NCBI GenBank assembly: GCA_030040575.1
Contig: JASHTK010000109.1
Coordinates: 1-49,018, forward strand
Reading direction: 5' to 3'
Source of the DNA: Gammaproteobacteria bacterium
Lineage (GTDB): Bacteria; Pseudomonadota; Gammaproteobacteria; Steroidobacterales; Steroidobacteraceae
Length of the DNA: 49,018 bases
The notes under the pieces are model-generated. The model saw only the letters and a program-made list of their open reading frames with translations, did not search any database and had not been told where the DNA came from. Position 1 is the stretch's first letter. Every line of letters starts with the position of its first letter. Positions 5,086-26,251 of the stretch are shown here, in pieces. The translations under genes were made by a program, and so were the position numbers.

Positions 5086-5143
5086 ATCGTGGTCGGCTCG
5101 GAGTCAGGTCCAGTTGTCCGCGTCCGGAACATAGGGATACCCG

Positions 5144-6859: not shown

Positions 6860-6888
6860 ATCGGTGCGCCTGAGCGCGCGGCAGCCCC

Positions 6889-8517
6889 TTGGCCACTCCC
6901 TCCCACGGTGCTTTCTCGGACTCCGACCGGGGCGTGGTTTATATCGCTCTCGGCCAACGGTTCCGCGAGGAGGCCACGGCCTCGGCGCAGTCCTTGCGGC
7001 GCTGCTGCCCGCAGCTTCCCATCCTCCTGTTCAGCGATGATGCCGCTCCCGGCGGGGACTCGCCCTTCGATCGGACCGTGACGATTGCCGCCGATTTCGG
7101 GGACCGTCCGGTAGGCACGGAGCCGTGGTCGTCGCCGGGCTGGCTGACGCGTATCGACATTCTCGCCACGTTTCCGTTCTCGCGAACGCTGCTGCTCGAT
7201 TCAGATACCGAGGTGGTCGGCGACATCTCCGGGGTGCTGCAGACACTCGATCGCTTCGATCTCGCCGTGGCACATGCCCCCTTCCGAATGCGCCGGCAAA
7301 TCGCCGCCATTCCCGACAGTTTCCCCGAATTCAATTGTGGCGTGATCGCCCTGCGCCGCTCGCCGGCATCCCAAGCGTTTCTGCAATGCTGGCGCAAACT
7401 CTATCTGGAGCAGCCGGATTGCTGGCACCATGATCAGCATTCCTTCCGGCAGGCAGCCTGGCAAAGCGAAGTGCGCATCGCGACGCTTCCGCCGGAGTTC
7501 AATCTGCGGCCCTCCCGTCACGCAGGCGGCAATGCGGTGCGGATCCTGCATGGATTCCGCCGCGCCGGCAGGCCAGCGGCCACGGACGATCGCAAAATCC
7601 GTCTTCTCAGCTACGAGCATGGTTGCGCGCATCACCGCTCCGGTTGGGAATATGCGCAGAACGCGCTGCGCGGCTTTACCCACCCTGCCGGCATTCTGCT
7701 CGATGGACTCCTGGAGAATACGTTTGTGTGGCATCTGTCGAATTACCAGCGCTATCTGCCCATCCGGGAGCCGTGGATCGGGATCGCACACAATCCGCCC
7801 GCCATGCCGAGCGGCTACTTCGCGTCGGCACAGCCACAGAATTTCATGAACAGCGCGCCGTTCCTCGACAGTCTCCCGTGCTGCCTCGGATTTTTCACCT
7901 TGTCGCAATACCACGCCTCGTGGTTGCGGCGGCTGGGCAAGCCGGTGGAGGTCCTGTATCACCCGGTCGCCTTCGACGTCCCGCAGTTCTCGTTCGAGCA
8001 ATTCACGGCCCGCAAAGTGCGGGCTGTGCTGCACATCGGCTGGTGGCTGCGTCGATTTCAATCCTTTGATGATTTGCAGGCGCCCGGCTATCTGAAATGC
8101 CTGCTGAAGCTGTCGCGCGAGAACGCCCTGAGAGCCGTCGAAGCCGTTGCGTGGAAGAGCGCGGTGCGGTTCATCGATTACCTCGGCAGTGGCGAGTACG
8201 ATGAGCTCTTGTCTCGCAGCGTCGTATTCGTCGATCTGATGGATTGCAGCGCCAGCAACGTGATCATCGATTGCATTGCACGCGGTACCCCACTGCTCAT
8301 CAATCGACACCCCGCTGCGCAGGAGTATCTCGGGTCGGGATATCCGCTGTTCTACGACAGCCCGGAGATGGCGGAAGCGCTGCTGCGGGACGACGGCCGG
8401 CTGCGGGCGGCATCGTTGCATATGCAGTCGGACGCGGTGAGGCGCAGGCTTTCCGCGGACGCGTTCCGCAGCGCATTCGCGCACTCGGCACTGTACCGCG
8501 GGCTGCCCCAGTGCTGA
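6889..8517 (+). CDS. Two-domain glycosyltransferase (GT-A nucleotide-diphospho-sugar transferase N-domain + GT-B-like C-domain)
   Basis: 542-aa ORF starting at TTG 6889; an in-frame GTG at 6934 is an alternative start. GT-A features are VVYIALGQRF and the DXD-type LLLDSDTEVV. The C-terminal VVFVDLMDCSASNVIIDCIARGTPLLINRHPAAQEYLG resembles a GT-B C-domain. Confidence 0.75.
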   Translation: MATPSHGAFSDSDRGVVYIALGQRFREEATASAQSLRRCCPQLPILLFSDDAAPGGDSPFDRTVTIAADFGDRPVGTEPWSSPGWLTRIDILATFPFSRTLLLDSDTEVVGDISGVLQTLDRFDLAVAHAPFRMRRQIAAIPDSFPEFNCGVIALRRSPASQAFLQCWRKLYLEQPDCWHHDQHSFRQAAWQSEVRIATLPPEFNLRPSRHAGGNAVRILHGFRRAGRPAATDDRKIRLLSYEHGCAHHRSGWEYAQNALRGFTHPAGILLDGLLENTFVWHLSNYQRYLPIREPWIGIAHNPPAMPSGYFASAQPQNFMNSAPFLDSLPCCLGFFTLSQYHASWLRRLGKPVEVLYHPVAFDVPQFSFEQFTARKVRAVLHIGWWLRRFQSFDDLQAPGYLKCLLKLSRENALRAVEAVAWKSAVRFIDYLGSGEYDELLSRSVVFVDLMDCSASNVIIDCIARGTPLLINRHPAAQEYLGSGYPLFYDSPEMAEALLRDDGRLRAASLHMQSDAVRRRLSADAFRSAFAHSALYRGLPQC

Positions 8518-9242
8518 AGTACATCATCCTGTCCACTCCCCGCTGCGGGAGCTCGACACTCATGCAATGCGCGCAGTTGTGGCTGGCGCGCCCGTTCGTG
8601 CGCGAGCCCCTCAATCCCTGGGAGCGTCCGGAGTTTCACCCGCCGATTCTGCACGGCAAGAGTGTGCGGGAGCGCGCCATGGTCATCTGTCGCGCCGATT
8701 GGGCTCCGCCGGGAATGAAGCACGTGCAGGATCCATTCCTTGATGCGCCTAAGACGGAGGCAAGCCTCGTGGCACTGCGGCAGGTCCTGTCGGTCCCTGA
8801 CGTGAGGGTGATCCTGCTCAGGCGGAGTGTCCCAGAACAATTCATCTCAATGGAGATCGCGCTGCAGACACGCGACTGGTGGTCGCTCGGTGCCGACGCG
8901 TTGCCCGCTGCGCTCGCACCCATCCGGAGCGGGACCTCGCAGGCGATCAACGAAGAGGAAATCCAACGGCGGCTAGCGAAGCTGCAGGAAGCGACTCGGC
9001 AACTCGCGGAGATTTGCAGGGAGTGTGGTGCCGATTACATCGAGCGCAGCTATGAGGAGCTGTTTCGCGGCTCCTGTGCCGACGCCGCGGAAAACGTCGT
9101 GCACGCCCTCGGCCATTTCGATGCAAACGCGCGCGGAGATCTGAACGAGCTTCGCCGTCTGCTGCAAAGAGACCGGCGCTTTGAAAGCATGCAACGCATC
9201 TACGAGAGCGTAGCCGCGCGTTACCCCAGCCTGCGCCAGTGA
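8511..9242 (+). CDS. Sulfotransferase (Stf0-like family)
   Basis: GTG 8511 sits in GTGCTGA, overlapping the upstream stop (TGA 8515-8517). It has a 5'-PSB-like loop ILSTPRCGSSTL and a 3'-PB-like VILLRRSVPEQFIS. The longer listed ORF from 8244 would overlap the glycosyltransferase. Confidence 0.7.
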   Translation: MLKYIILSTPRCGSSTLMQCAQLWLARPFVREPLNPWERPEFHPPILHGKSVRERAMVICRADWAPPGMKHVQDPFLDAPKTEASLVALRQVLSVPDVRVILLRRSVPEQFISMEIALQTRDWWSLGADALPAALAPIRSGTSQAINEEEIQRRLAKLQEATRQLAEICRECGADYIERSYEELFRGSCADAAENVVHALGHFDANARGDLNELRRLLQRDRRFESMQRIYESVAARYPSLRQ

Positions 9243-9343
9243 TGGCAAAGACTTCCGGCAGGATGGCGCTTGCGAAGGCGCGGCACGCTCGCGCGGCTTC
9301 TTGCTCGACGGCAGCCACGGCAGCTCCTCGGCAGACCCCCGTG

Positions 9344-9372
9344 CGAATCCTGGGGGGAGCCGAATCCTGGGG
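9344..9372. repeat. Perfect 12-bp direct repeat CGAATCCTGGGG x2 (9344-9355 and 9361-9372), candidate regulator binding site
   Basis: Read directly from the sequence. Centre-to-centre spacing is 17 bp, and it lies about 220 bp upstream of the PEP-CTERM gene start. Function is unknown. Confidence 0.6.
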
Positions 9373-9413
9373 CGGGCCGGATCCGATAGCATCGTCGGAG
9401 GCCGCCTTCCCGG

Positions 9414-9455
9414 CCGCCACCCGCCACCTGCCACCCGCCACCCGGCACAGGGCAC
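9414..9455. repeat. Six tandem 7-mers (CCGCCAC, CCGCCAC, CTGCCAC, CCGCCAC, CCGGCAC, AGGGCAC)
   Basis: Read directly from the sequence in the 9243-9588 intergenic region. The heptamer periodicity decays toward the 3' end. Function is unknown. Confidence 0.6.
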
Positions 9456-9588
9456 CCTGACGCAGGCGCAGCGTGCACCGCAACACGGCGGCCGGTCACA
9501 GGATCGTCACGGAACGGATACATACGGGCCGGAACATTCCCGCGGGTGGTTGCCGCGCAGGGTCCGGGCGCGGGAGGACTCATCAATC

Positions 9589-10548
9589 ATGAAGCTTGCG
9601 CGCGCATGGCCGGTGGTGCTGGCGCTGGTCCTCGCCAGGACGGCCGCAGCGCAGATCCCTGGCCCGTCGAACGACTACAACGTCTTTATCTTCGGCACCG
9701 GCACCTTTACCGGTTTGGATGACGAGACGATCGGCAACCTCGCGGCGGGCGGGGCCGTCACGCTCACGAGCTACTCGATCGCCACCGGAATCGAGGGCAA
9801 CGGCTCCACCTCGATGTCGAGTCCCGATCCCGCGCGGCTCGTCGTCGGCGGAGCGCTCACGACGAACAACGGCGGTGAGGTGGGGGATAACGGCACCGGC
9901 ACGATCTATTACGGCACCATCGCGCCCACGTACAACAACGGCGGGTTCACTTCCGGCACCACCCCGGTGCCCAATCAAACGCTCGTGAACTTTGCCGCGA
10001 GCCAGACCTACTACACCAACTATTCGCAGCAGCTCGGAGCGCTCTCCGGCACCAACCTCACTTTATCGGGCAGCACCTCGCTCGATCTGAGCGGGCTGCA
10101 AAGCGGCCTGAATGTCGTCAACATCCAGGACGGGAGCACGGGGCTCAACCTGTCGAGCATCGAGATCAACGGTGCGACGAACGCGACGGTGCTGATCAAC
10201 ATCCTCGGCAGCGGGCCCGTGACCTTCATGTACCTCGGACAATCGGGCAGTCTCGACAGCGGGGCCGACGTGCTCTTTAACTTCGTCACGGCGACGTCGG
10301 TGAATGTGGAGGGCACCTTGAGTGCCTCGATTCTCGCGCCCTACGCCGGTGTGACGGCCGAGAACGGGGACATCAACGGGCAGCTCATTGCCGATTCGTT
10401 CTCGGGCAGCGAGGAATTCACCAACGTCGCCTTCGCAGGCACCCTGCCTGCGCCCGTGCCTTTGCCGGGGAGCGTCTTGCTGTTCGTGTCGGGACTGCTC
10501 GGCGCGGCAGTGATCCTGCGGCGGCGTCCGGCCACCCTGAGCGGCTGA
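9589..10548 (+). CDS. Secreted choice-of-anchor-A family protein with PEP-CTERM-type sorting signal
   Basis: GGGAGGA lies about 10 nt upstream of ATG 9589. The signal peptide is MKLARAWPVVLALVLARTAAAQ. Choice-of-anchor-A-type motifs are YNVFIFGTGTFTG, NLAAGGAVTL, VLINILGSGPV, VLFNFVTAT, ILAPYAGV and INGQLIADSF. The C-terminus VPLPGSVLLFVSGLLGAAVILRRRP has the motif, TM helix and basic tail of PEP-CTERM. Confidence 0.8.
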   Translation: MKLARAWPVVLALVLARTAAAQIPGPSNDYNVFIFGTGTFTGLDDETIGNLAAGGAVTLTSYSIATGIEGNGSTSMSSPDPARLVVGGALTTNNGGEVGDNGTGTIYYGTIAPTYNNGGFTSGTTPVPNQTLVNFAASQTYYTNYSQQLGALSGTNLTLSGSTSLDLSGLQSGLNVVNIQDGSTGLNLSSIEINGATNATVLINILGSGPVTFMYLGQSGSLDSGADVLFNFVTATSVNVEGTLSASILAPYAGVTAENGDINGQLIADSFSGSEEFTNVAFAGTLPAPVPLPGSVLLFVSGLLGAAVILRRRPATLSG

Positions 10549-10584: not shown

Positions 10585-11379
10585 TCAATTGACGTACTCG
10601 CCGAGGAAGTGGATGGTGCGTTGCCACGCATCGGCCGCCGCGGCGCTGTCGGCCGCACCGGTATCGCGGTCAAAGCGATGCCCCGCGCCATCGTAGAGCT
10701 GGATCTCGCAAGGACTGCCCGCTGAGCGGACGATGGCCGCAAGATGTCTGGCGGCCCCGACGGGGACCGTCGAGTCGTCCGTGCCATGCAGGATCAGCAC
10801 CGGAGAGCTCTCCTTACCGAAGAGGGAACGGAAGCGGGCCTGGTCCCGATCGGTGCCGGCACCCGACAGGGCGCCGTAGTAGCTGATGCCGGCCTGGACC
10901 TTCCCGGTTGCCGCGAGCCACACGGCGAAGTAGCCGCCGCTCGAGAAGCCAAGGGCCGCGATTCGTCGTCCGCCGACCTTCGATTCGTGCGACAGCGTGT
11001 CGAGCGCGGCGAGGAAGTCCGCGTAGATCGCCTCGGCGTCGCTCGTGAAGGCGCGCGCGCGCGTTCTCGCGCTGATCTGATAGGCGTCGAGGAACGCCGG
11101 CACGAGCACCACGTAGCCCGCGTGCGCTAGGCGCTCGGCGAAGGCGAGATCGGCCGGCTCCAGGCCTCCGCTCGTATGCAGCAGCAACACGCCTGGATAC
11201 GGTCCCCGGCCGTCGGGCGTCACGAGAGTCGCCGACATGCTCTGGCGCACTCCGACCTTGAGGGCCCGTTCCGCGGAGTGGACATCCGCGCCGATCAGGC
11301 CGAGAGCGCACAGCAGTGCTGCACCCACCGCCGCTGGGGCACGCGCTCGAAGGGCGGAACGCCGCATGCGATCCCTCAA
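10585..11379 (-). CDS. Secreted alpha/beta hydrolase, dienelactone hydrolase family
   Basis: It has an N-terminal signal sequence. Family motifs are GVLLLHTSGG, the nucleophile elbow GFSSGG, ILHGTDDSTVP and GAGHRF. Confidence 0.85.
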   Translation of the reverse strand: MRDRMRRSALRARAPAAVGAALLCALGLIGADVHSAERALKVGVRQSMSATLVTPDGRGPYPGVLLLHTSGGLEPADLAFAERLAHAGYVVLVPAFLDAYQISARTRARAFTSDAEAIYADFLAALDTLSHESKVGGRRIAALGFSSGGYFAVWLAATGKVQAGISYYGALSGAGTDRDQARFRSLFGKESSPVLILHGTDDSTVPVGAARHLAAIVRSAGSPCEIQLYDGAGHRFDRDTGAADSAAAADAWQRTIHFLGEYVN

Positions 11380-11435
11380 GTCTTGCCGCTGCCTGTCGCC
11401 GAGGGGGCCGACGCCGAAGAGGCCATTTCTCGCGG

Positions 11436-11454
11436 AATTGTAATTGATAATAAT
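11436..11454. promoter_or_regulatory. AT-rich island (AATTGTAATTGATAATAAT) in a divergent intergenic region; candidate promoter/operator
   Basis: These 19 nt contain only two G and no C, within an otherwise very GC-rich region. The island sits between the divergently transcribed hydrolase (start 11379) and sensor gene (start 11557). It contains a TGATAATAAT extended -10-like string. No transcription start-site evidence is available. Confidence 0.25.
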
Positions 11455-11556
11455 CCCGCATCCGTGACGTGCAAGCCCCGGGCGGGGATCCTACCGCGTG
11501 CGGGACAACTCTGGCACACTGCATCCGGTCATCTTCGGGGGGCCGGCTGCAAGGCG

Positions 11557-12423
11557 ATGAAGCTCATCGTCCGACTCAATCTCGTGCTGATCCCGGTCCT
11601 CGCGGCCGCCGCGCTCGTCGCCGGCGAGATCGGCTCGCACTTGCTCGAGCTCGATGCCCGCAACGGGGCGCTGCGCGAGGCCGGCCTCATGATGGACGCC
11701 GCGCTCACCGCCCGCGGCTACACCACCGAGCAGATCGTCCCGCTGCTCAAGGAGGGCATGAAGCAGGCCTTCCTGCCGCAGAGCATCCCCTCGTACGCGG
11801 CGACCGAGCAGTTCCTCGGCCTGCGCGCCCGGCACCCGGAGTACGCGTACAAGGAAGCGACGCTCAACCCGACCAATCCGCGGGATCGGGCGACGGACTG
11901 GGAAGCGGACATCATCCAGCGGTTCCGCAACGATCCGGGAACGACCGAGATCGTGGGCGAGCGCGAGACGCCCCTCGGCAGCTCCCTGTATCGGGCCCGG
12001 CCGATCCGGGCAGACGCCCCGTGCCTCGAATGCCACAGCGTGCCCTCGGCCGCGCCGGCGACCATGCTCGCGCGCTACGGCACCGACAACGGGTTTGGCT
12101 GGCAGCCGCAGGAGATCGTGGGCGCCCAGATCGTCTCGGTGCCCCTTGCGAGCGCGACGGCGAGCGCACGCGAGGCGTTCCGGGGAGTGATGGAGCTGGT
12201 CGCAGGCGCCCTTCTCGCGGTCCTCATCGCCGTCAACATCATGGTGCACGGGCTGGTCGCGAGGCCGCTCGAGCGCATGGCCGCGGCGGCCGATGCGGTG
12301 AGCCTCGGCAACACCTCGACGCCCATCCCCTCGGGCGGCAGCGCCGAGATGCGGGCGCTCGCCCGCGCATTCGACCGGCTGCGCGTCAGCATGGAGAAGG
12401 CGCTGAAGCTCCTGGACAGTTAA
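11557..12423 (+). CDS. Membrane sensor: Tll0287-like (DUF3365) c-type haem domain + HAMP, no output domain
   Basis: Starts at ATG 11557. TM1 is MKLIVRLNLVLIPVLAAAALVAG. The periplasmic domain carries the haem-c motif CLECH (APCLECHSVPSAAP). TM2 is LVAGALLAVLIAVNIMV. The HAMP domain reads ARPLERMAAAADAVSLGN...EMRALARAFDRLRVSMEKAL. The ORF ends (TAA 12421-12423) a few codons after HAMP. Confidence 0.8.
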   Translation: MKLIVRLNLVLIPVLAAAALVAGEIGSHLLELDARNGALREAGLMMDAALTARGYTTEQIVPLLKEGMKQAFLPQSIPSYAATEQFLGLRARHPEYAYKEATLNPTNPRDRATDWEADIIQRFRNDPGTTEIVGERETPLGSSLYRARPIRADAPCLECHSVPSAAPATMLARYGTDNGFGWQPQEIVGAQIVSVPLASATASAREAFRGVMELVAGALLAVLIAVNIMVHGLVARPLERMAAAADAVSLGNTSTPIPSGGSAEMRALARAFDRLRVSMEKALKLLDS

Positions 12424-12427
12424 GACC

Positions 12428-13096
12428 GTGCCGCACCAGGTGTTCGTCAGCTACTCCCAGCCCGACCGGATCTGCGCGATCGAGCTCGTCGCGCGCCTCG
12501 AGGCGCACGGCTTCGGCGTGTGGGTCGCGCCCCGCGACGTGGTGCCGGCGTCGGATTGGGCTGCCTCGATCATCACCGCGATCGGCAACGCGCGCCTGAT
12601 GGTCCTCGTGTTCTCCGGGCACTGCAACGAGTCCCCGCACGTGCGTCGCGAGGTCGAGTGCGCGGTGCACCGGCAACTGCCGATCCTCCCGTTCCGCATC
12701 GAGGACGTGCCGCCCTCGAGCAGCCTCGAGTACTTCCTCGGCACGCAGCACTGGATGGACGCGTTCGCGCTGCCGCGCGAGTCGCACTATGAGCGGCTGT
12801 GCGCGCACGTCGGCGCGCTGCTCGGGCGGGTGGCGGCGCCCGCCGTGAATCCTCCCCCGCCTGTCGCGGCCCCCTCGGAACGCGCGCCGGACGAGCGGGC
12901 ACTGCAGCACCTGACCCGCGAGCTCGCCCGGCACGTGGGACCGGTGGCCCAGCACTTGGTCGGGCGCGCCGCGAAGTCCACCGGGAGCTGGGAGCAACTG
13001 TGCCGGCGGCTGGCCGAGGAGATCGGACCGGAGGCGGACCGGCAGCGATTCATCGACGCCTGCCGCCTGCCGCCGCGACCGGAAGGCCGAGAGTGA
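12428..13096 (+). CDS. TIR-domain protein with uncharacterised C-terminal extension
   Basis: GTG 12428 lies 4 nt after the upstream stop. TIR_2-type pattern: VFVSYSQPD, GFGVWVAPRD, ARLMVLVFSGHCNESPHVRREVECA (candidate catalytic Glu), LPILPFRIEDV and TQHWMDAF. A ~90-aa tail carries ELARHVGPVAQHLVGRAA. Confidence 0.85.
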   Translation: MPHQVFVSYSQPDRICAIELVARLEAHGFGVWVAPRDVVPASDWAASIITAIGNARLMVLVFSGHCNESPHVRREVECAVHRQLPILPFRIEDVPPSSSLEYFLGTQHWMDAFALPRESHYERLCAHVGALLGRVAAPAVNPPPPVAAPSERAPDERALQHLTRELARHVGPVAQHLVGRAAKSTGSWEQLCRRLAEEIGPEADRQRFIDACRLPPRPEGRE

Positions 13097-13260
13097 GGCG
13101 GTGCATGAGGGTCGCGTGAGGATGTACCGCTAGCCGCTTGCAAACGCTGAGAATTCCGCGGCTCGAGCGCCGGGGTCTCGCGAGCGGCTGGCGCGGGGTG
13201 GCCCGGCCGGCGGCCTTGCAGCGAGCGCCGGCCGAAATGGGCCGAATCGGCCGTATTTCG

Positions 13261-13336: not shown

Positions 13337-14026
13337 ATGTCGAAGTCTGCTGACTTCTCCTCCGCGAGCCTCGCTGCCCGACCCTGGGACGCTCGGCTCG
13401 CGCGCCGGATCGTGGCGCCGCTCAAGGAGGGCCCCGTCACGCCGAATCACGTGACGACCGCCCGATTGGTGCTCGGGCTCGCCGGTGCGGCCGCCTTTAC
13501 CTGCGGAACGTATGGCTGGTCGAACCTCGCCGCGCTGCTTTATGTGGTCTCGAACTTCCTCGATCATGCCGACGGCGAGCTCGCCCGCCTGAGCGGCCAG
13601 TCCACCCGGATCGGCCACGTATACGACCTCGCGAGCGACGCCGCCGTGACGATCCTGCTGTTCCTCGCGATGGGGGTCGGGGTGGGCGCCGCGCCCGGGC
13701 CGGGACTCGCCCTGCCGGTGCCGCCGGCCGCGCTCGGTGCGATCGCCGGGACCGCCGTCGCGCTCATCTTCTTCCTTCGCATGCGCATCGAGGAGCTGGC
13801 CGGCAAGGTGGCGAGCCGCCAGGGCTCGTTCGGCGGCTTCGAGACCGAGGACATTCTGTACCTGCTTCCGGTCGTGACCGTGTGCAATGCGGTCACGCCG
13901 TACCTGATCGCCGCCTCGATCGGCGCTCCGCTCTTCGCCGTGTGGGTCGTGATCGACTACCGCCGCGTGATGCGCCGCGCGAAGCCGGCGGTGGCCGACT
14001 CCACCTCCGGGACGGGCCTCGCCTGA
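13337..14026 (+). CDS. CDP-alcohol phosphatidyltransferase family membrane protein
   Basis: It carries the signature D-x2-D-G-x2-A-R-x8-G-x3-D-x3-D as DHADGELARLSGQSTRIGHVYDLASD. Multiple hydrophobic helices are present. Confidence 0.85.
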   Translation: MSKSADFSSASLAARPWDARLARRIVAPLKEGPVTPNHVTTARLVLGLAGAAAFTCGTYGWSNLAALLYVVSNFLDHADGELARLSGQSTRIGHVYDLASDAAVTILLFLAMGVGVGAAPGPGLALPVPPAALGAIAGTAVALIFFLRMRIEELAGKVASRQGSFGGFETEDILYLLPVVTVCNAVTPYLIAASIGAPLFAVWVVIDYRRVMRRAKPAVADSTSGTGLA

Positions 14027-14109
14027 TCGCCCTGCCCGCGAGCTCGGCGCGCGAGCGCGGATCCCGGGCGGCAGGCGGATCCGATTCGCGGCCCGACGCC
14101 GATCGAGCG

Positions 14110-14823
14110 ATGACGGAGCGGCTGCGGGGCCTCGACACCCGAGCGCTGCGCCGGGACTTCGCGCGGCAGGGCGCGTTCCTCTACCTGCCTCAGTTCCTCG
14201 GGCGGGAGACCGTGGCGCAGCTCGCCTGCGCCGTCGAGGCCCTGCGCGACTCGGTCAACCGCAACTACCTGCCCGGTCACAAGCAAGGCGGCAGCGTGAG
14301 CCGCCACACGATTGACGAGCTCGCGCCCTTCGTCGCGGATCTGTACCGCTCATCCGCCCTCATCGAATGGCTGGGACAGGTCTCGGGCGAGCGCCTCGAG
14401 CCCTCGCCGCCCGAGGACCCGCACGCCTACGCCTTCTACTTCTACACGCGGCCGGGCGACCACATCGGCTGGCACTACGACACCTCCTACTACGCGGGCC
14501 GCCGCTACACGCTGCTCTTCGGCATCCTCGATGAGTCCTCATGCCGCCTCGACTACGAGCTGCACACGCGCGAGCGCGGCGTCGCGCCCGTCGCCGGCTC
14601 CCTGCAGATCCCGCCGGGGGGCCTCGTCTTCTTCGACGGAGACGCCCTGCGCCACCGTATCACGCCGCTCGGGCGCGGGGAGTCGCGCGTATCGCTCACC
14701 TTTGAGTACCTGACCGATCCGCGCATGCCCCTCGGGTGGCGGGTGATCTCGAACTTGAAGGACGCGCTCGGATACTTCGGGTTTCGCCAGGTGTTTCGCC
14801 GCGGCCGGCGAGGCGCGCCATGA
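14110..14823 (+). CDS. 2-oxoglutarate/Fe(II)-dependent oxygenase superfamily protein
   Basis: Starts at ATG 14110; the frame is open from 13882, but that start would overlap the upstream gene. Candidate HxD...H triad residues are GWHYDTSYY and ALRHRITPL, followed by RVSLTFEY. The subfamily is not recognised. Confidence 0.65.
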   Translation: MTERLRGLDTRALRRDFARQGAFLYLPQFLGRETVAQLACAVEALRDSVNRNYLPGHKQGGSVSRHTIDELAPFVADLYRSSALIEWLGQVSGERLEPSPPEDPHAYAFYFYTRPGDHIGWHYDTSYYAGRRYTLLFGILDESSCRLDYELHTRERGVAPVAGSLQIPPGGLVFFDGDALRHRITPLGRGESRVSLTFEYLTDPRMPLGWRVISNLKDALGYFGFRQVFRRGRRGAP

Positions 14824-15833
14824 GGCGGCCTGCGATCTGGCTGCTCACGGCCGGCGCATTGCTCTTTGCGGGCGTGCTGATCTCGCAGGGCCTCGGCCCG
14901 GTGTTCGCGACGCTCGCGACCGCGGGCTGGGGCCTGCTCCTCGTCGCCCTGTTTCACGTGCTGCCGCTCTCGCTCGATGCCGTGGCGATCCGCGTGCTGT
15001 TCGATGCGGCGACCGCGCGCGGCTCCGCGCGCGACGCCCTGCTCGCCCGCTGGATGGGCGAGTCCGCGAACAGCCTGATGCCCGTCGGGCAGGTGGCAGG
15101 ACCGGTGGTGATGGCCCGCTGCCTCTCTCACCGCGGGATGCCGATGCAGGACGCCGTCGCCGCGGTCACGGTGAGCACGACCTTGCAGGGACTCGCGCAG
15201 GTGATCTTTGCCCTCATCGGCCTCGCGCTCCTCGCGGCGCAGGCGGGCGCGGCTCCTCACGCCGCTCACTCGCCGCGGCTTGGCTCCTTCCTGCTCATCG
15301 CCGGCGTCGTGCTCGCGGTGCCGGTGGTGCTGTTCTACCTCGTTCAGCGCCGCGGCCTCTTCGGCCGGTCGATGCGCGCCATCGCTCGGCTCTGGGGCAC
15401 GCGCGACTGGTCGCGGCTCACGGGCCACGCCGAGGCGATCGACCGCGCCGTGGAGCGCACGTACATGCGGGGCGGACGGACGCTCGCGAGCTTCGTGCTG
15501 AGCCTCGTGGGCTGGCTCATCGGCACCGGGGAGGTGTATCTCATCCTGCAGTTGATCGGCTCGCCCGTCGGATGGGCCGATGCCCTGGTGCTCGAGAGCC
15601 TCGGGCAGGCGGTGCGCGGCGCGGCGTTCGCCGTTCCGGGGGCGCTCGGCGTGCAGGAAGGCGGTTACCTGCTGCTCGCCCCATTGATGGGGCTGCAGGC
15701 GGACGCCGCCCTGGCCCTCTCGCTCGCCAAGCGCGCGCGGGAGATTCTGCTCGGCTTGCCCGGGCTGCTGTCGTTGTACCTCACCGAGCGGGTCCGGCGC
15801 CGCCGCATCGCCTGCGCGGCCGCCGGAGACTGA
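14820..15833 (+). CDS. Flippase-like integral membrane protein (UPF0104 / lysyl-phosphatidylglycerol synthase TM-domain family)
   Basis: ATG 14820 lies in an ATGA overlap with the upstream stop. The protein is polytopic and hydrophobic. Family-like loops are SLMPVGQVAGPVV and AVPGALGVQEGGYLL. Confidence 0.7.
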   Translation: MRRPAIWLLTAGALLFAGVLISQGLGPVFATLATAGWGLLLVALFHVLPLSLDAVAIRVLFDAATARGSARDALLARWMGESANSLMPVGQVAGPVVMARCLSHRGMPMQDAVAAVTVSTTLQGLAQVIFALIGLALLAAQAGAAPHAAHSPRLGSFLLIAGVVLAVPVVLFYLVQRRGLFGRSMRAIARLWGTRDWSRLTGHAEAIDRAVERTYMRGGRTLASFVLSLVGWLIGTGEVYLILQLIGSPVGWADALVLESLGQAVRGAAFAVPGALGVQEGGYLLLAPLMGLQADAALALSLAKRAREILLGLPGLLSLYLTERVRRRRIACAAAGD

Positions 15834-15924
15834 GGACGAGCCGGCCCGCGGGTCCCGGGGGCCGATGAGGCGGCGCGCCGCGCATTTTTGTATAGTCCGA
15901 AGCCCGGGCGTTCCAGAGGGTCTC

Positions 15925-16668
15925 ATGCGCGCCATCATTCTCGCGGCGGGCCGCGGCTCGCGCCTCAAGCAAGCCGCGGACCGGCAACGGCCCAAGTGCC
16001 TGCTGCAGTTCGGTGGCAAGAGCCTGCTCGAGCGGCACTTGCTGCTCCTCAGGAAGGCAGGCGTCGCGGAGGTCGTTCTCGCGCTCGGCTTTCGCCATGA
16101 GCTGATCGAGGCCGAGCTCGACCGGCTCGGCTGGCGGCCACGCCCGCAGATCGTGTTGAACGCGCGATTCGAGCTCGGCAGCCTCCTCACGGTCCACACG
16201 GCCGCCGAGCCGCTGACGCGCGGCGGCGAGGTTCTGCTCATGGACGCCGACGTGCTCTACCACGAGCGCGTGATGGATGCGCTCGCCGCCGGGGACCGGC
16301 CCGCGAACCGGCTCCTCATCGACCGTGAGTTCGAGCCCGGCGAGGAGCCCGTCAAGCTCTGCGTGCGCGACGGCGTGCCGGTCGAGCTCGCCAAGCAGCT
16401 TCCCCCCGATCTGCGCTACGACACCATCGGCGAGTCGGTCGGCTTCTTCCGGTTCGCGGAGGCGGAGGCGCGACGGCTCGCGGCGCTCGTCGACGGCTAC
16501 GTCGCGGCGGGGCGGGCCCACCTGCCGCACGAGGAGGCGGTGCGCGATCTGCTGAAGGAGCGCGGCCGGGCCTTCGAGGTCGCCGACGTGACGGGGCTGC
16601 CCTGGATCGAGATCGATTTCCCGAACGACGTGGCGCGCGCGGCGAGCGAGGTTCTGCCCCAACTGTAG
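15925..16668 (+). CDS. Nucleotidyltransferase (LicC/sugar-phosphate nucleotidyltransferase-like)
   Basis: ATG 15925 begins [14 protein letters not shown] (nucleotide-binding loop), followed by [14 protein letters not shown]. The listed start at 15865 adds a non-homologous-looking leader. Confidence 0.8.
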
Positions 16669-16676
16669 TCGCCCTC

Positions 16677-18485
16677 ATGGCCGTACCGATCAAAGCCGCG
16701 CCCGATGGGTCCGCCGTCTCGGCGCTCAACCGCCCGCTCGCCCGCGAGGAGGCGACGACGCGCAGCGCGCGGCTGCGCCAGATGCTCGTGAGCGACCGGC
16801 TCGAGTTCCTGATGGAGGCGCACAACGGGCTCTCGGCGCGCATTGTGCGCGAGGTGGGATTCCGCGGCATCTGGGCGTCGGGGCTCAGCATCGCCGCGCA
16901 GTTCGGGGTGCGCGACAACAACGAGGCGAGCTGGACGCAGGTCGTCGAGATGCTGGAGTTCATGGCCGACGCGAGCGATCTGCCCATCCTGCTCGACGGC
17001 GACACCGGCTACGGCAACTTCAACAACCTGCGCCGCCTGGTGCGCAAGCTCGAGCAGCGCGGCATCGCGGGGGTGTGCATCGAGGACAAGCAGTTTCCGA
17101 AGACCAACAGCTTCTTGAACGGCGAGCGCCAGCCGCTCGCCGACATCGCGGAGTTCGCCGGCAAGATCACGGCCGGCAAGGACACGCAGCGCGACCCGAG
17201 CTTCTCGATCGTCGCCCGAGTCGAGGCGCTGATCGCCGGCTGGGGCATGGAGGAGGCGCTGCGGCGGGCCGAGGCGTACCGGCGTGCCGGCGCGGACGCG
17301 ATCCTGATCCACAGCAAGCTCTCGAAGCCGGATGAGATCGTCGCGTTCGCGCGCGAGTGGGCGGGACGCGCGCCGCTCGTGATCGTCCCGACGCGCTACT
17401 ACAGCACGCCGACCGCGGTGTTCCGCCAGGCGGGCATCAGCGTCGTCATCTGGGCCAACCACATGGTGCGAGCCGCCGCCGCCGCCATGCAGAGCGTCGC
17501 GAAGGAGATTCACTCGAGCGAGACGCTCGTGAACGTCGAGGACCGGATCGTGCCGGTCGCGGAGATCTTCCGCCTGCAGGACGCCGATGAGTACTCGGCG
17601 GCCGAGCGGCTTTACCTCGCCGCATGCGGCACTTCGCGCGCGGCAATCGTGCTCGCGGCGAGCCGCGGCCGCGGACTCGAGGCCGTGACGGTGGACCGCC
17701 CGAAGGTGATGCTGCCGATCGCCGGCAAGCCGCTGCTGCGCTGGCTGGTGGACAGCTTCAAGAAGGAGAGCATCAACGACATCACCGTCGTCGGCGGCTA
17801 CCGGGCCGATGCGATCGACACGGCGGGCATCCAGCTCGTCGTGAACGAGCGCTACGCCGAGACCGGCGAGCTCGCCTCGCTCGCCTGCGCGGCCGGCGCG
17901 CTCGAGTCGGACGCGGTGATCTCCTACGGCGATCTGTTGTTTCGCAGCTACGTGCTGCGCGACCTCCTCGAGAGCAAGGCCGACTTCTCCGTGGTGGTGG
18001 ACTCCTCCCCGACGGATGCGAGCAACCGCACGGTGCGGGATTTCGCCTACTGCTCGCGCGCGGACGATCGCGGCCTGTTCGGCACGCCGGTATTGCTCGA
18101 GCGGGTGTGCGGCGCGGCCGACGGGCGGCAGGTCGGAGCCGCGGCGCCGGGGGCGCCGCAGGCGGCCTCCCCGGGCGACGGCGCCCAAGGCCGCTGGATC
18201 GGGCTGCTCAAAGTGAGCGGCAAGGGGCTCGCATCGCTCAAGGCGGTGCTCGGCGCGCTGCGCGCGCGGCCGGATTTCGACCGGCTCGACGTCCCGCACC
18301 TCCTCAACGCGCTGATCGCCGAGGGAGCGCGGATCGAGGTCCTCTACGTGCATGGCCACTGGCGCGGCGTCAACGATCTCGAGGACTTCCACCGGGCGGG
18401 CGACTTCGCGCACGCGCAAACGCCGTTCGCGGCGGCGTCCGGCACGGGATCGGGCGCGGCACCGGCGGATCGGGGCGATGATTGA
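16677..18485 (+). CDS. pepM: Phosphoenolpyruvate phosphomutase fused to a C-terminal nucleotidyltransferase domain
   Basis: PepM/isocitrate-lyase-superfamily motifs are [23 protein letters not shown] and the PepM-diagnostic [11 protein letters not shown]. The C-terminal half carries [15 protein letters not shown]...[14 protein letters not shown], a nucleotidyltransferase loop. The gap to the upstream gene is 8 nt. Confidence 0.92.
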
Positions 18486-19665
18486 AGCGCGCGAGTTCGT
18501 GGAGGCGGCGGGCGAGCGCGGCTTCGAGTGGTACGCCGGCGTCCCGTGCTCCTTCCTCACGCCGTTCATCAATTACGTGCTGCAGGACGCCTCGCTCCGC
18601 TACCTGTCCATGGCGAACGAGGGCGATGCGGTCGCACTGATCGCGGGCATCGCGCTCGCGCGCGGCACCGGACCGGCGCGCCGCCGCGGCGTCTCGATGA
18701 TGCAGAACTCCGGGCTCGGCAATGCGGTGAGCCCGCTCACCTCCCTCACCTGGACGTTCCGCCTGCCGCAGCTGCTGGTCGTCACCTGGCGGGGCCAGCC
18801 GGGCGTTGCCGACGAGCCGCAGCACGCGCTCATGGGGCCGATCACCCCGGCGATGCTCGAGACCATGGAGATTCCCTGGGAGCTCTTTCCGACGCAGTCC
18901 GCCGCCATCGGCCCGGCACTCGACCGCGCGACGGCACACATGGATGAGAGTGGCCGGCCGTACGCGCTCGTGATGCAGAAGGGCAGCGTGGCCGCGTACG
19001 CCCTCGGCCCGGGACGCGCCGGTGCGGGGATGCGGTCGTCCGAGCGCACCTTCGCGGCTGCCGTGTCGAGCGGGGGGCGGAGCGCTCCGGAGGCGAGGCC
19101 CTCGCGGCGCGACGCGCTTCGTGAGATCGTGGCGCACACGCCGAGCGCATCGACCGTGGTGCTGGCATCGACCGGATACTGCGGCCGGGAGCTCTACGCC
19201 ATCGAGGATCGACCGAACCAGCTCTACATGGTCGGCTCGCTCGGGTGCGTGGTGCCTCTCGCCCTCGGATTCGCCCTCGCCCGGCCCGACCTGCGCGTGC
19301 TCGCGCTCGACGGGGACGGCGCGGCGCTGATGCGGCTCGGGGCGTTCGCGACCGTCGGCGCCTACGGCCCGCCGAATCTGACGCATCTCCTGCTCGACAA
19401 CGGCGTGCACGACTCGACGGGGGGTCAGGCGACGGTCTCCCCGAGCACCTCGTTCGCGCAGATCGCCGCCGCGTGCGGCTATGCCTCCTCGCTCGAGACC
19501 GACGATCTCGGCGAGATCGCCGCGTGGCTCGATGCCCCGCCGCGCGGCGGCCCGCGCTTCGCGCGACTGCTGATCCGTCCCGGAACCCCTCACGATCTGC
19601 CGCGCCCCTCCATCGCGCCGTTCGATGTGAAGCGCCGCCTGATGCGGCACTTCGGAGCCGGCTGA
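18478..19665 (+). CDS. ppd: Phosphonopyruvate decarboxylase (ThDP-dependent)
   Basis: ATG 18478 overlaps the pepM stop by 8 nt. The N-terminus is [19 protein letters not shown]. The ThDP-binding region is [14 protein letters not shown]...[14 protein letters not shown]. Confidence 0.9.
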
Positions 19666-20741
19666 TGCTGCTCCTGAACCCGGGACCCGTGTCCTTGAGC
19701 GAGCGGGTACGGCGGAGCCTGCTGCAGCCCGACCTGTGCCATCGCGAGAGGGAGTTCTTCGACCTGCAGGAGGAGGCGCGCGCGCGACTGCTCGGGACGT
19801 ACCGGCTCGACCCGGCCGAGTGGGCCGCCGTGCTGATCAGCGCATCGGGGACCGCGGCGGTCGAGAGCATGGTGGCCTCACTCGCGCCCTCGGCCGGCCG
19901 GCTACTCACGCTCGAGAACGGCGTGTATGGCGAGCGCATCGCGCAGATTTGCGAGCGGTACGGGATCGCGCACGAGCGGGTGATGGGCGCGTGGACCCGC
20001 GCGCTCGACCTCGAAGCCGTCGCCGCGCGGCTCGACGGTGCCGCCCCGAGCGCGCGCTTCACGCACGTCGCGGTGGTGCACCACGAGACGACGACCGGGC
20101 GACTCAACGAGCTCCAACGGCTCATGGAGCTGTGCGGCCGGCGCGGCGTGCGGCTGCTCGTGGACGGCGTCAGCAGCTTTGGTGCCGAGGCGATCGACTT
20201 CGCCGACGAGAGCCTCGCGGCGGTCGCCGCAACGGCGAACAAGTGCCTGCACGCCGTGCCGGGAGTCTCCTTTGTGGTCGCGCGGCGCAGCGCGCTGCGC
20301 GCGGCGGTGAGCCGCGCCTTCTATCTCGACCTCGGCCGGCTCGCGGACTTGCAGGATCGGCGCGACACGCCGTTCACACCCGCCGTCCACGCCCATTACG
20401 CGCTGGTCGAGGCCCTGCGCGAGCTCGCCGAGCAAGGCGGGCAGCCGGCCCGCCACCGGCGCTACGCCGCGCTCGCCGAGCAGGTGCGCGCAGGGCTCGC
20501 CGCGCTCGGCATCGCGGCGGTCGTGCCTCCCGAGCAGTCGTCGGTGGTGTTGCGCTCGTACCGGCTGCCGGCAGGTCTCGCCTACGCGGCCCTGCACGAC
20601 GCCCTGAAGGCAGAGGGCTTCGTGATCTACGCGGGGCAGGGGGAGCTCTCGCGGACGCTCTTTCGCATCTCGACCATGGGCGAGGTGAGCTCGGCGGACA
20701 TCGACCGACTCCTCCGGTGCATCGCGCCAGTCCTGCGATGA
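19665..20741 (+). CDS. phnW: 2-aminoethylphosphonate:pyruvate aminotransferase (class V)
   Basis: ATG 19665 lies in a TGATG overlap with the ppd stop. The N-terminus is [20 protein letters not shown]. The PLP-lysine region is ATANKCLHAVPGVSFVV. Confidence 0.88.
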   Translation: MLLLNPGPVSLSERVRRSLLQPDLCHREREFFDLQEEARARLLGTYRLDPAEWAAVLISASGTAAVESMVASLAPSAGRLLTLENGVYGERIAQICERYGIAHERVMGAWTRALDLEAVAARLDGAAPSARFTHVAVVHHETTTGRLNELQRLMELCGRRGVRLLVDGVSSFGAEAIDFADESLAAVAATANKCLHAVPGVSFVVARRSALRAAVSRAFYLDLGRLADLQDRRDTPFTPAVHAHYALVEALRELAEQGGQPARHRRYAALAEQVRAGLAALGIAAVVPPEQSSVVLRSYRLPAGLAYAALHDALKAEGFVIYAGQGELSRTLFRISTMGEVSSADIDRLLRCIAPVLR

Positions 20742-22099
20742 GCGAGGCGCCTCGGCGCACGCCGCGCGCAGCACCTCCTTGCCGTCTTGCCGCGGTGGTC
20801 GCGCTGGCGGTGGGCATCGCCGCGTCGCTTGACGCCGCGGGCGCTTGGGCGCAGGACCCGGCCGAGGTGCCCGGGGTGCCCCAGACGCAATCGCCCGCGT
20901 CGGCACCGAGTCCCCCGACCGCCCCGAGCTCGGCCCTCGCGCGCTGGTTCGACCCGGCGACCGCGCCGTTCATCCCCGTTCCGGAGATCGCGGTCGACCC
21001 GGACAGCGGCACGACGCTCGGGCTCATCCCGACGTGGCTCAAGACGGATGAGAACGGCGCGATCCGCCGCATCATCGCGCCGGATGTGATCTACAACCCG
21101 TACTTCGGCTGGGGAGTGCACGGGCGGCTCTACTCGTACCCCTCGGCCGACGAGCAATGGTCGGTGGTCGGCGAGATCAAGGAGCGCGTCGAGCGCGGGC
21201 TCAACGCGCAGTACCAGCAAGGGCTCCTGCGCCGGGAGCGCTGGTCGTTCTCGACGAGCGTGATCTTCGATCGCGACGGCACGCCGCGCTTCTACGGCAT
21301 CGGCAACGGGACCAAAGAGAGCGCGCAGACGAACTACACCAACCAGCAGGAGCTGTTCCAGGCGCAGATCGGACTCAACCTGAGTCACGCGTGGCAGCTG
21401 CAGTACACCGGGCGCGTGCGCATCGTGGACGTGCTCCCGGGCACGCTCTCGCACATTCCCTCGATCCAGGTGCTCTTTCCCGACGTTCCCGGGCTCGGCA
21501 CCAATCGCGAGGTGCTGAACCGCCTGTCGATCGTCTACGACACCCGCGACAATCTGACCGTTCCGACGCGCGGGGTCGAGTGGGTGGCTTACACCGGCAT
21601 CGCAAGCCGCGGCGGCGTGCTCAACGATTCCGAGGAGAGCGAGGCGGGCATCGATGGCCGCGCCTTCTGGCCGGTCACGCCCGCGACGGTTCTCGCGGCG
21701 CACATGGCCCTGCGGTACGTGCTGTCGGGCAGCGACCTGCCGTTCTGGGCGCTGAGCAGCATCGGCGGCGGTGAGAGCGAGATCGGCGGCGAGCAGCTGC
21801 TGAGAGGCTACGGCGAGGGGCGCTTCTACGATCGCAACTCCTTCGCGGCCTCCGTCGAGCTGCGACACAAGATCATGTCGATCCACGCCACCGCCACACC
21901 GATCGACATCGAGCTCACGCCGTTCGTGGACGCAGGCCGTGTGTTCTCGGATCTCGGTACTGTGCCGCTCACGCAGCTGCACAAGGCGGTGGGGGTGGGC
22001 TTCCGCGGCGTCGCCCGGCCGTTCGTCGTCGGCTACGTCGATATCGGCTACGGGAACGAGGGCGCGGCGGTGTTCACCGGCCTCAACTACCCGTTCTGA
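20738..22099 (+). CDS. Omp85/BamA-TamA-family outer-membrane beta-barrel protein, apparently without POTRA domains
   Basis: ATG 20738 lies in an ATGA overlap with the phnW stop. A signal-like AAVVALAVGIAASLDAAGAWAQ is followed by a Pro/Ser/Ala linker. The body has amphipathic beta-strand character and ends ...TGLNYPF with a terminal Phe. At ~450 aa it is about one barrel in size. Confidence 0.75.
   Translation: MSEAPRRTPRAAPPCRLAAVVALAVGIAASLDAAGAWAQDPAEVPGVPQTQSPASAPSPPTAPSSALARWFDPATAPFIPVPEIAVDPDSGTTLGLIPTWLKTDENGAIRRIIAPDVIYNPYFGWGVHGRLYSYPSADEQWSVVGEIKERVERGLNAQYQQGLLRRERWSFSTSVIFDRDGTPRFYGIGNGTKESAQTNYTNQQELFQAQIGLNLSHAWQLQYTGRVRIVDVLPGTLSHIPSIQVLFPDVPGLGTNREVLNRLSIVYDTRDNLTVPTRGVEWVAYTGIASRGGVLNDSEESEAGIDGRAFWPVTPATVLAAHMALRYVLSGSDLPFWALSSIGGGESEIGGEQLLRGYGEGRFYDRNSFAASVELRHKIMSIHATATPIDIELTPFVDAGRVFSDLGTVPLTQLHKAVGVGFRGVARPFVVGYVDIGYGNEGAAVFTGLNYPF

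Positions 22100-22481: not shown

Positions 22482-26251
<3,770 letters not shown>

Follow-up and report, generated by a model that had tools for sequence, protein, structure and literature searches.

A predicted phosphonate head-group operon of a Steroidobacteraceae genome, its Omp85 barrel gene, and its genomic ties to HpnL and hopanoid genes

Which molecule receives the head group that a bacterial phosphonate operon appears to build? This question is raised by a stretch of 49,018 nucleotides from a gammaproteobacterium of the Steroidobacteraceae (assembly GCA_030040575.1, contig JASHTK010000109.1, positions 1 to 49,018; hereafter, “the window”), in which eight co-directional open reading frames, all on the plus strand, run from position 13337 to 22099. 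We refer to these genes as g1 to g8. A first-pass annotation had read them as a translationally coupled operon for a lipid with a head group of the 2-aminoethylphosphonate (AEP) type and for the export of this lipid, with diacylglycerol as the example of an acceptor. We consider it likely that the operon serves to equip a membrane lipid with an AEP-type head group. As to the acceptor, we tentatively favor an extended hopanoid (a bacteriohopanepolyol such as bacteriohopanetetrol) over diacylglycerol, with a confidence that stays somewhat below even; the product would then be a phosphonate-capped hopanoid. Judged by gene content, the first seven genes are already known as the core of a predicted cluster, whose carbon-phosphorus (C-P) lipid product is itself a prediction. 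What is new here is a conserved Omp85 barrel, encoded by g8, and a previously undiscussed tie to the HpnL family and to hopanoid genes.

The eight genes correspond to the frames with high G+C at third codon positions in a window of ~70% G+C, and translation confirmed the operon structure together with all four of the motifs previously quoted for it, including DHADGELARLSGQSTRIGHVYDLASD. Start and stop codons overlap at four junctions: by 4 nt between g2 and g3 (ATGA, 14820-14823), by 8 nt between g5 and g6 (18478-18485), by 1 nt between g6 and g7 (TGATG, at 19665), and by 4 nt between g7 and g8 (ATGA, 20738-20741). The intergenic gaps measure 83 nt between g1 and g2, 8 nt between g4 and g5, and 91 nt between g3 and g4 if g4 starts at 15925, or 31 nt if it starts at 15865. 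The same operon with the same gene calls occurs, at 99-100% protein identity, on a second contig of 21 kb (GCA_030044675.1, JASIDK010000240.1; L001) that begins inside g1; the window therefore represents a separate and longer assembly, of the same organism or of one nearly identical to it.

AEP synthesis is assigned to g5, g6, and g7, all three of which exceed the curated equivalog cutoffs of NCBIfam. The g5 product (16677..18485, +) is a phosphoenolpyruvate (PEP) mutase (Ppm; residues ~30-315; TIGR02320, 392 bits versus a cutoff of 320) that bears the EDKxxxxxNS motif and is joined in one chain to a cytidylyltransferase domain (~320-602; NTP_transf_3) whose best solved relative is LicC (1JYK, E = 4.5e-12). 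It is followed by a phosphonopyruvate decarboxylase (Ppd) in g6 (18478..19665, +; 395 aa; TIGR03297, 431 bits versus 312), which carries the thiamine diphosphate motif LDGDGAALM, and by an AEP aminotransferase (AEPT) in g7 (19665..20741, +; 358 aa; TIGR03301 PhnW-AepZ, 381 bits versus 361). A route from PEP via phosphonopyruvate (g5) and phosphonoacetaldehyde (g6) to AEP (g7) is well supported by these family assignments. A free-standing cytidylyltransferase resembling LicC and PntC is encoded by g4 (15925..16668, +; 247 aa; NTP_transf_3, 54 bits), labeled a MobA-like nucleotidyltransferase in Pfam and NCBIfam; the alternative start at 15865 would extend it to 267 aa, and the start at 15925 is the one chosen by an independent gene call for the NCBI contig. 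The g4 product aligned full-length with the characterized AEP cytidylyltransferase Tde1415 (PDB 6PD1; residues 2-245 to 4-236, E = 9e-7), and by this measure it has the LicC-fold homology expected of a PntC. Because g5 is a fusion of Ppm with a cytidylyltransferase, the operon encodes two LicC/PntC-like enzymes, g4 and the C-terminal domain of g5.

Ppm-cytidylyltransferase fusions and the cytidylyl activation of AEP have been described before (Rice et al. 2019, PMC6697681). With such PntC and LicC systems (T. denticola Tde1415; S. pneumoniae LicC; PMC6697681) the operon shares a full-length PntC-like protein in g4, a LicC-like domain in g5, and the typical Ppm fusion. It differs in having two cytidylyltransferases and a CDP-alcohol phosphotransferase (CDP, cytidine diphosphate), whereas in the known systems the downstream transfer is thought to go to glycans via LicD-type enzymes. 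The logic that the first-pass annotation had laid out, namely AEP synthesis, activation with cytidine monophosphate (CMP), and transfer by a CDP-alcohol enzyme, is supported by the family assignments of these genes and of g1.

We scanned one genome per species (185,579 species genomes) and found a relative of g1 in at least 570 of them; 80 species-level loci were retrieved and compared with all eight proteins by tblastn. The residue comparisons use 81 sequences, i.e., the 80 loci and the window copy, with the duplicate contig L001 not counted separately. The g1 product (13337..14026, +; 229 aa; PF01066, 50 bits) is a CDP-alcohol phosphotransferase and our proposed head-group transferase. It has hydrophobic segments and the complete motif DxxDGxxARx8GxxxDxxxD at residues 76-101, which was invariant in 81 of 81 sequences. 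Its closest solved structures are AF2299 and IPCT/DIPPS, and its closest NCBIfam models are synthases of the inositol-phosphate type (AIP, PIP, DIPP), all scoring far under their cutoffs. Against the CDP-diacylglycerol-dependent synthases (PgsA, PIP, and AIP synthase), its best scores were 46, 26, and 19 bits versus cutoffs of 180, 170, and 109, which falls short of equivalog-level similarity. The archaeal IPCT/DIPPS and AF2299 proteins, the best solved and NCBIfam relatives of g1 and g4, share with the operon a scheme in which a cytidylyltransferase supplies a CDP-alcohol and a membrane transferase hands it on to a hydroxyl, but the scores are far under the cutoffs (46 versus 180; 58 versus 580), the proteins are separate here instead of fused, and the proposed substrates are phosphonates here versus inositol phosphate there.

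The second gene, g2 (14110..14823, +; 237 aa; PF23169 HalD, 44 bits), encodes an Fe(II)/2-oxoglutarate oxygenase of the HalD/BesD type, with HalD (7U6H) and BesD (6NIE) as solved relatives. The iron-ligand residues H122-x-D124...H182 were invariant in all 81 sequences (H122-Y-D124 in the window). We rejected a role as a halogenase, as HxD is present where HalD and BesD have HWG (HxG) at the aligned position, and the aspartate instead of glycine after the first histidine leads us to predict that g2 is a hydroxylase. The third gene, g3 (14820..15833, +; 337 aa; PF03706, 97 bits), encodes a polytopic membrane protein of the MprF-flippase-like fold family. Its match to the TIGR03476 HpnL model reached 313 bits versus a cutoff of 195.65 and spanned profile positions 2-318 of 318, so by profile score g3 belongs fully to the HpnL family; it also matches, weakly, a glucosaminyl-phosphatidylglycerol flippase model. 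The protein earlier labeled an “LPG-synthase-type” transmembrane protein is an HpnL-family member. PF03706 is likewise shared with the flippase domain of MprF (LPG_synthase_TM), but g3 has no synthase domain, and flipping by HpnL is suggested only by analogy.

The HpnL family is described in the literature as hopanoid-associated and of unknown function. Homology searching with g3 returned only relatives of at least 64% identity; HpnL proteins linked to hpnI were reached via a plasmid collection. In replicons of Burkholderia sp. PAMC 26561, Caballeronia zhejiangensis, and Paraburkholderia graminis, the HpnL gene stands directly after hpnI, beside hpnJ and hpnK. A fourth HpnL, that of P. largidicola, is solitary and has no hopanoid genes in its vicinity. 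These other HpnL proteins share 31-37% identity with g3, and their scores on TIGR03476 are 298-324 bits (324 and 298 for hpnI-adjacent ones). HpnI is a glycosyltransferase that adds a sugar head group to bacteriohopanetetrol. Since HpnL directly follows hpnI in three Burkholderiaceae replicons, a head-group transferase together with HpnL is therefore a recurring pair. The hpnI/hpnJ/hpnK/hpnL arrangement, whose genes concern the glucosamine and cyclitol-ether head groups of bacteriohopanetetrol, and our operon have in common a TIGR03476 protein directly beside a transferase for a polar head group; they differ in the transferase, which is a GT2 glycosyltransferase there and a CDP-alcohol phosphotransferase with a phosphonate donor pathway here.

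A second tie lies in the surroundings of the g1-g4 module, which is joined to hopanoid genes in 13 of the 80 species loci. In L020, the genes idi, hpnH, farnesyl diphosphate synthase, squalene synthase, shc, hpnG, and hpnA run directly into g1 through g8 on one strand, with HpnH and HpnG above their cutoffs. In L014 the module, which lacks ppm, is bordered at one end by squalene synthase, shc, hpnA, and hpnH; at its opposite end lie the Rieske oxygenase, dxs, and an MMPL transporter. In Mycetohabitans endofungorum the core is followed within 20 kb by dxs, MMPL, ispH, hpnH, hpnA, a glycosyltransferase, an hpnG-like gene, shc, and hpnD, and among Mycetohabitans replicons of the plasmid collection g1 co-occurred with shc in nine of nine; seven of these have tabulated positions for both genes, and there the distance is ~20 kb. 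Roseomonas marmotae, of the Alphaproteobacteria, carries rearranged orthologues (34-65% identity) inside an hpn cluster: its set comprises PntC, the Ppm fusion, Ppd, an HpnL-type protein, AEPT, and the CDP-alcohol transferase, without a 2-oxoglutarate oxygenase, and is flanked by an MMPL transporter and a polyprenyl synthase and, on the other side, by ispH-hpnH-hpnG-shc-hpnE-hpnD. The module hence abuts or lies inside hopanoid clusters in Alpha-, Beta-, and Gammaproteobacteria; the g3 of the window is not near hopanoid genes, and its orthologues are near them in the 13 loci, in Mycetohabitans, and in Roseomonas. As a side observation, the dxs copies that adjoin the phosphonate cluster in Mycetohabitans (L082:15969-17802) and Roseomonas (L092:2066-3947) appear split across reading frames and are not annotated, possibly as pseudogenes or through sequencing frameshifts.

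A Rieske/VanA_C oxygenase adjoins the module in 35 loci, mostly immediately 5′ of g1 and elsewhere further off or downstream (e.g., L041:8726-9970, L014:14925-16022, and L086:5675-6742). It is 82-86% identical between loci, and in L041 the gap to g1 is 3 nt. Its sole strong named relative is SdmA, a bacterial 4-methylsterol monooxygenase, with 148 bits versus a cutoff of 600, i.e., a relative and not an orthologue. The oxygenase may oxidize a hopanoid.

The four genes g1-g4 turned out to be the invariant part of the locus. Their colinearity holds in 77 of 77 loci of sufficient length, with the other 3 of the 80 cut off earlier, and in soil metagenomes the close relatives of g1 number in the thousands, many of them labeled Steroidobacteraceae. 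The first-pass annotation had named chance adjacency as the conclusion to be drawn if the gene combination were not conserved; it is conserved, and chance adjacency of unrelated genes is refuted by this conservation, as it is by the four start/stop overlaps. The full set g1-g7 was present in 47 of the 80 loci, with the barrel gene present in 44 of these, absent in 1, and cut off in 2. AEPT alone has been lost in five (L019, L030, L035, L037, L066), each of which keeps the barrel. A further 21 of the 80 have g1-g4 without g5-g7. Eleven of these are Steroidobacteraceae-like, with the barrel directly after g4 or upstream, and ten belong to Paraburkholderia/Burkholderia (L054, L058, L061, L063, L064, L067, L069, L071, L072, L075), where a major facilitator superfamily (MFS) transporter lies 3′ of g4 in ten of ten and a gamma-glutamyltranspeptidase is found in six of ten (tblastn; Pfam-confirmed for L054 and L058). 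A tree built from concatenated g1-g4 placed the ppm-less Steroidobacteraceae-like loci in scattered positions among ppm-bearing ones, which argues for repeated loss or relocation of the AEP genes. AEP synthesis is, at the level of the locus, the most dispensable part. Some lineages display a piecemeal decay of the AEP-synthesis genes (the five AEPT-less loci, L013, and L023) with g1-g4 and the barrel intact, and L013 retains a short Ppd-like match between g4 and the barrel.

The eighth gene, g8 (20738..22099, +; 453 aa), encodes an outer-membrane barrel of the Omp85 superfamily (PF01103, 60 bits versus a cutoff of 24), arranged as a signal peptide, a proline-rich linker, and the barrel; a Pfam search gave no match to the POTRA families. 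In its AlphaFold model (pLDDT 67, moderate confidence), barrel strands begin at about residue 94 and residues 1-90 are disordered or of low confidence, and the best structural matches are the barrels of TamA and BamA (Foldseek, E ~1e-10; TamA 1.7e-10). We rejected an identification as BamA or TamA, as POTRA domains are absent: The Omp85-type barrel is shared, but g8 is not an orthologue of either, and its genomic partners are lipid head-group enzymes. The barrel lies beside the g1-g4 module in 61 of the 80 loci, and when contexts were collected from the barrel’s side (homologues of at least 62% identity on long contigs, plus the window’s own), g1-g4 were present in four of five. In the fifth, a 5.03-Mb genome (L084, L085, 8864-11332), the barrel comes straight after a Rieske oxygenase, g1-g7 being missing from the interval, and the flanks (uvrC, pgsA, Lactamase_B) are the same as in module-bearing loci, which suggests that the entire module is subject to a deletion or insertion polymorphism.

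That genome raised the idea that the Omp85 barrel is a mere positional neighbor. We judge this unlikely because the barrel gene is translationally coupled to g7 or g4, because it takes three different positions relative to the module, and because it is kept in most of the loci without g5-g7 (11 of 21). The barrel was absent from all nine Paraburkholderia/Burkholderia loci with sufficient flank (the flank of the tenth, L061, is too short), was likewise missing from the 20-kb surroundings of the cores in B. cenocepacia and Cupriavidus, and had no Omp85 match in the examined stretches flanking the Mycetohabitans core. The barrel is thus a lineage-specific but tightly associated partner, which accompanies g1-g4 rather than the AEP genes. 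The earlier description of an Omp85 barrel in a phosphonate operon is right as to the barrel and has to be amended as to its association, which is with g1-g4 and not with phosphonate synthesis.

The first seven genes are not new as a set. In content and order, g1-g7 equal the published seven-gene core of the Burkholderiales_CDP-OH group, with 54-84% identity to the proteins of B. cenocepacia, Cupriavidus sp. P-10, and Mycetohabitans endofungorum (tblastn). This group comprises 318 neighborhoods in 12 gene-cluster families, and Li & Horsman (2022, PMC8942020) treat it as the same as the Group 1 phosphonolipids of Yu et al. 2013. The operon displays the gene features of the group: a Ppm with EDKxxxxxNS fused to a PntC-type domain, adjacent Ppd and AEPT, an Fe/2-oxoglutarate oxygenase (g2), a free PntC (g4), and, in g1 and the LPG_synthase_TM protein g3, the two genes that were described as associated with phospholipid biosynthesis (PMC8942020). 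It differs in its Steroidobacteraceae-like gammaproteobacterial host and in the eighth, translationally coupled Omp85 gene. For the group, 1-hydroxy-AEP has been predicted, and no phosphonolipid has been characterized from it (PMC8942020); a literature search found no later paper that identifies the product of this cluster. A preprint on Burkholderia “flavophos” was set aside as a lead, since it concerns a different, four-gene cluster. The earlier statement that no characterized pathway with this full gene set was known is accordingly correct in that the product was never identified, and incorrect in that g1-g7 are a published core (PMC8942020). The published work was based on Ppm and was thus blind to ppm-less versions, as any survey that starts from Ppm will miss the arrangement with g1-g4 only, and a linkage to HpnL or hopanoids was not discussed for the group. 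A related described product is the sphingophosphonolipid of Bacteriovorax stolpii, likewise a bacterial lipid with a 1-hydroxy-AEP head group and a cluster of the AEPT type, but one from a distant gene-cluster family (GCF 761) and with ceramide as the acceptor (PMC8942020).

A mechanism can be sketched from these assignments. The g4 protein and the C-terminal domain of g5 would make CMP-AEP, g2 would hydroxylate AEP or its CMP conjugate, and g1 would transfer the phosphonyl group from CMP to a lipid hydroxyl, freeing CMP. By analogy to related membrane proteins, g3 would carry the product across the inner membrane, and the POTRA-less barrel g8 would act on it at the outer membrane. The Roseomonas version, which lacks the hydroxylase, argues for AEP as part of the donor, CMP-AEP, and against AEP as the acceptor alcohol. 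For the lipid hydroxyl, three lines led us to favor a hopanoid: the recurring pair of a head-group transferase and HpnL, the linkage to hopanoid genes across three proteobacterial classes, and the sterol-oxygenase-like Rieske neighbor. Extending this to the whole Group 1 cluster family is more tentative still, yet conceivable: Its clusters would make a bacteriohopanepolyol capped with (hydroxy)AEP, HpnL proteins would be inner-membrane translocators of head-group-modified hopanoids, and POTRA-less Omp85 proteins would be dedicated outer-membrane factors.

Several observations weigh against a hopanoid acceptor. No hopanoid or Rieske genes were found across the whole 49-kb window, and none of the hopanoid genes lies within 20 kb of the cores of B. 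cenocepacia and Cupriavidus. Many of the hopanoid-linked loci come from related metagenome-assembled genomes of the Steroidobacteraceae, so the counts are not independent, and adjacency to hopanoid genes could reflect a shared envelope function and not a covalent link. The nearest characterized relatives of g1 use substrates of the inositol-phosphate type, which are uninformative about a hopanoid acceptor, and the absence of g5-g7 from 21 loci implies that AEP is made elsewhere or that another substrate can be used. The published prediction is a phosphonolipid. Finally, a literature search returned no phosphonate-bearing hopanoid and no chemistry joining bacteriohopane and phosphonate; the terms “phosphonoterpene” and “terpene-phosphonate” appear only in passing, for Nitrosococcus and Acetobacteraceae, from antiSMASH region labels, and phosphonates go unmentioned in the recent hopanoid papers that treat HpnL.

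The strongest competitor is a glycerophosphonolipid, in which g1 would move CMP-(hydroxy)AEP to diacylglycerol in the manner of the Kennedy pathway and the resulting analogue of phosphatidylethanolamine would be flipped by g3 and reach the outer membrane. Eukaryotic ethanolamine and choline phosphotransferases of the CDP-alcohol superfamily use diacylglycerol, and AEP glycerolipids exist in ciliates. The identical enzyme set fits such a product, as do the lack of hopanoid genes near the B. cenocepacia and Cupriavidus cores, the published label of phosphonolipid, and the phospholipid association of two of the genes (PMC8942020). However, in Burkholderia, where the cluster is both prevalent and expressed, no glycerophosphonolipid has been found (PMC8942020), and this reading leaves unexplained the membership of g3 in the hopanoid-restricted HpnL family, the position of the module within or against hpn clusters in three proteobacterial classes, and the SdmA-like oxygenase next door. 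We regard it as rather unlikely, and diacylglycerol as the acceptor, which the earlier description had put forward, is not established, with the hopanoid linkage pointing to a hopanoid at least as strongly. It is improbable, to our mind, that the module has no specificity for phosphonates, such that g1-g4 with or without g8 would install an aminoalkyl-phosphate or -phosphonate drawn from AEP (made in cis, made elsewhere, or taken up) or from a phosphate ester such as phosphoethanolamine. This would account for the loci from which g5-g7 (21 of 80) or AEPT alone (5 of 80) are absent while the catalytic residues of g1-g4 are always kept, and for the scatter of ppm-less loci in the g1-g4 tree. LicC, the relative of the g5 domain, takes AEP as a poor non-cognate substrate, but characterized PntCs strongly prefer AEP (PMC6697681). 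Against this reading, separate AEPT-containing neighborhoods in Paraburkholderia (GCFs 880 and 865; PMC8942020) make a supply of AEP from another locus plausible, and the window itself holds a complete, translationally coupled AEP pathway.

A reversed polarity, with g1 as a CDP-diacylglycerol synthase that places phosphatidate on the hydroxyl of a hydroxy-AEP made by g2, as PgsA and PIP synthase do with their acceptors, would agree with the soluble inositol-phosphate acceptors of the best NCBIfam and PDB relatives of g1 (AIP, PIP, and DIPP synthases) and with the presence of g2 beside g1 throughout the 80 loci. We hold it to be very unlikely: Both cytidylyltransferases would be left without a role, and Roseomonas, which has the transferase, both cytidylyltransferases, and the AEP genes, would lack an acceptor alcohol for want of the hydroxylase. 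A shade less likely again is a target other than a lipid, where CMP-AEP would serve a glycan, the lipopolysaccharide core or lipid A, a protein, or a soluble phosphonate product. Most characterized bacterial AEP decorations are indeed on glycans (PMC6697681), and a large glycosyltransferase lies 8 kb upstream in the window, but this gene is not conserved with the module, the module itself has no glycosyltransferase and no transferase of the LicD or EptA type, and an integral-membrane CDP-alcohol enzyme is paired with a flippase-like protein.

The distinction matters since clusters of this group are the most abundant bacterial phosphonate clusters, accounting for about one third of the ppm neighborhoods in the RefSeq set analyzed, with a product that has not been found (PMC8942020). 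Group 1 phosphonolipid clusters occur in hundreds of soil and Burkholderiaceae species, and a capped bacteriohopanepolyol, if true, would constitute a hitherto undescribed class of lipids, adding both to the known membrane lipids and to the sinks of C-P phosphorus in soils, and could serve as a new hopanoid biomarker. If the product is instead an ordinary glycerophosphonolipid, it would be a routine new member of a known predicted family. The locus and its relatives tie together two old questions, the product of the Group 1 clusters and the function of HpnL, and make both directly testable.

In the window, just 5′ of g1 lie a Tll0287-like/HAMP sensor protein (11176-12423, +) and, after 4 nt, a TIR-domain protein (12428-13096, +), which may be a signaling or defense pair and which are not conserved with the operon in other loci. 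A terminator-like hairpin at 13240..13252 (+), 3′ of the TIR gene and found by a consensus scan only, which is weak evidence, may possibly mark the 5′ boundary of the operon; a promoter scan of this region of 70% G+C gave no sigma-70-like promoter. On the other side, an MFS transporter gene (22482-23885, −) runs convergently toward the barrel gene. Its product shares 36% identity with the MFS transporter 3′ of g4 in Paraburkholderia, and the same neighbor is present in L001 and L002. Positions 1-9000 are of lower G+C (0.61-0.66) and encode an ankyrin-repeat protein, a protein of 1067 aa that combines three glycosyltransferase domains, and two further proteins without a Pfam match (571 and 542 aa); a pAdhesive_15 protein comes next, at 9301-10548. 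At the far end, between 44001 and 49018, the G+C content falls from ~0.70 to ~0.56 along a stretch that includes a 1325-aa outer-membrane beta-barrel protein (PF25183) on the minus strand, reaching the window end, and that may be horizontally acquired DNA.

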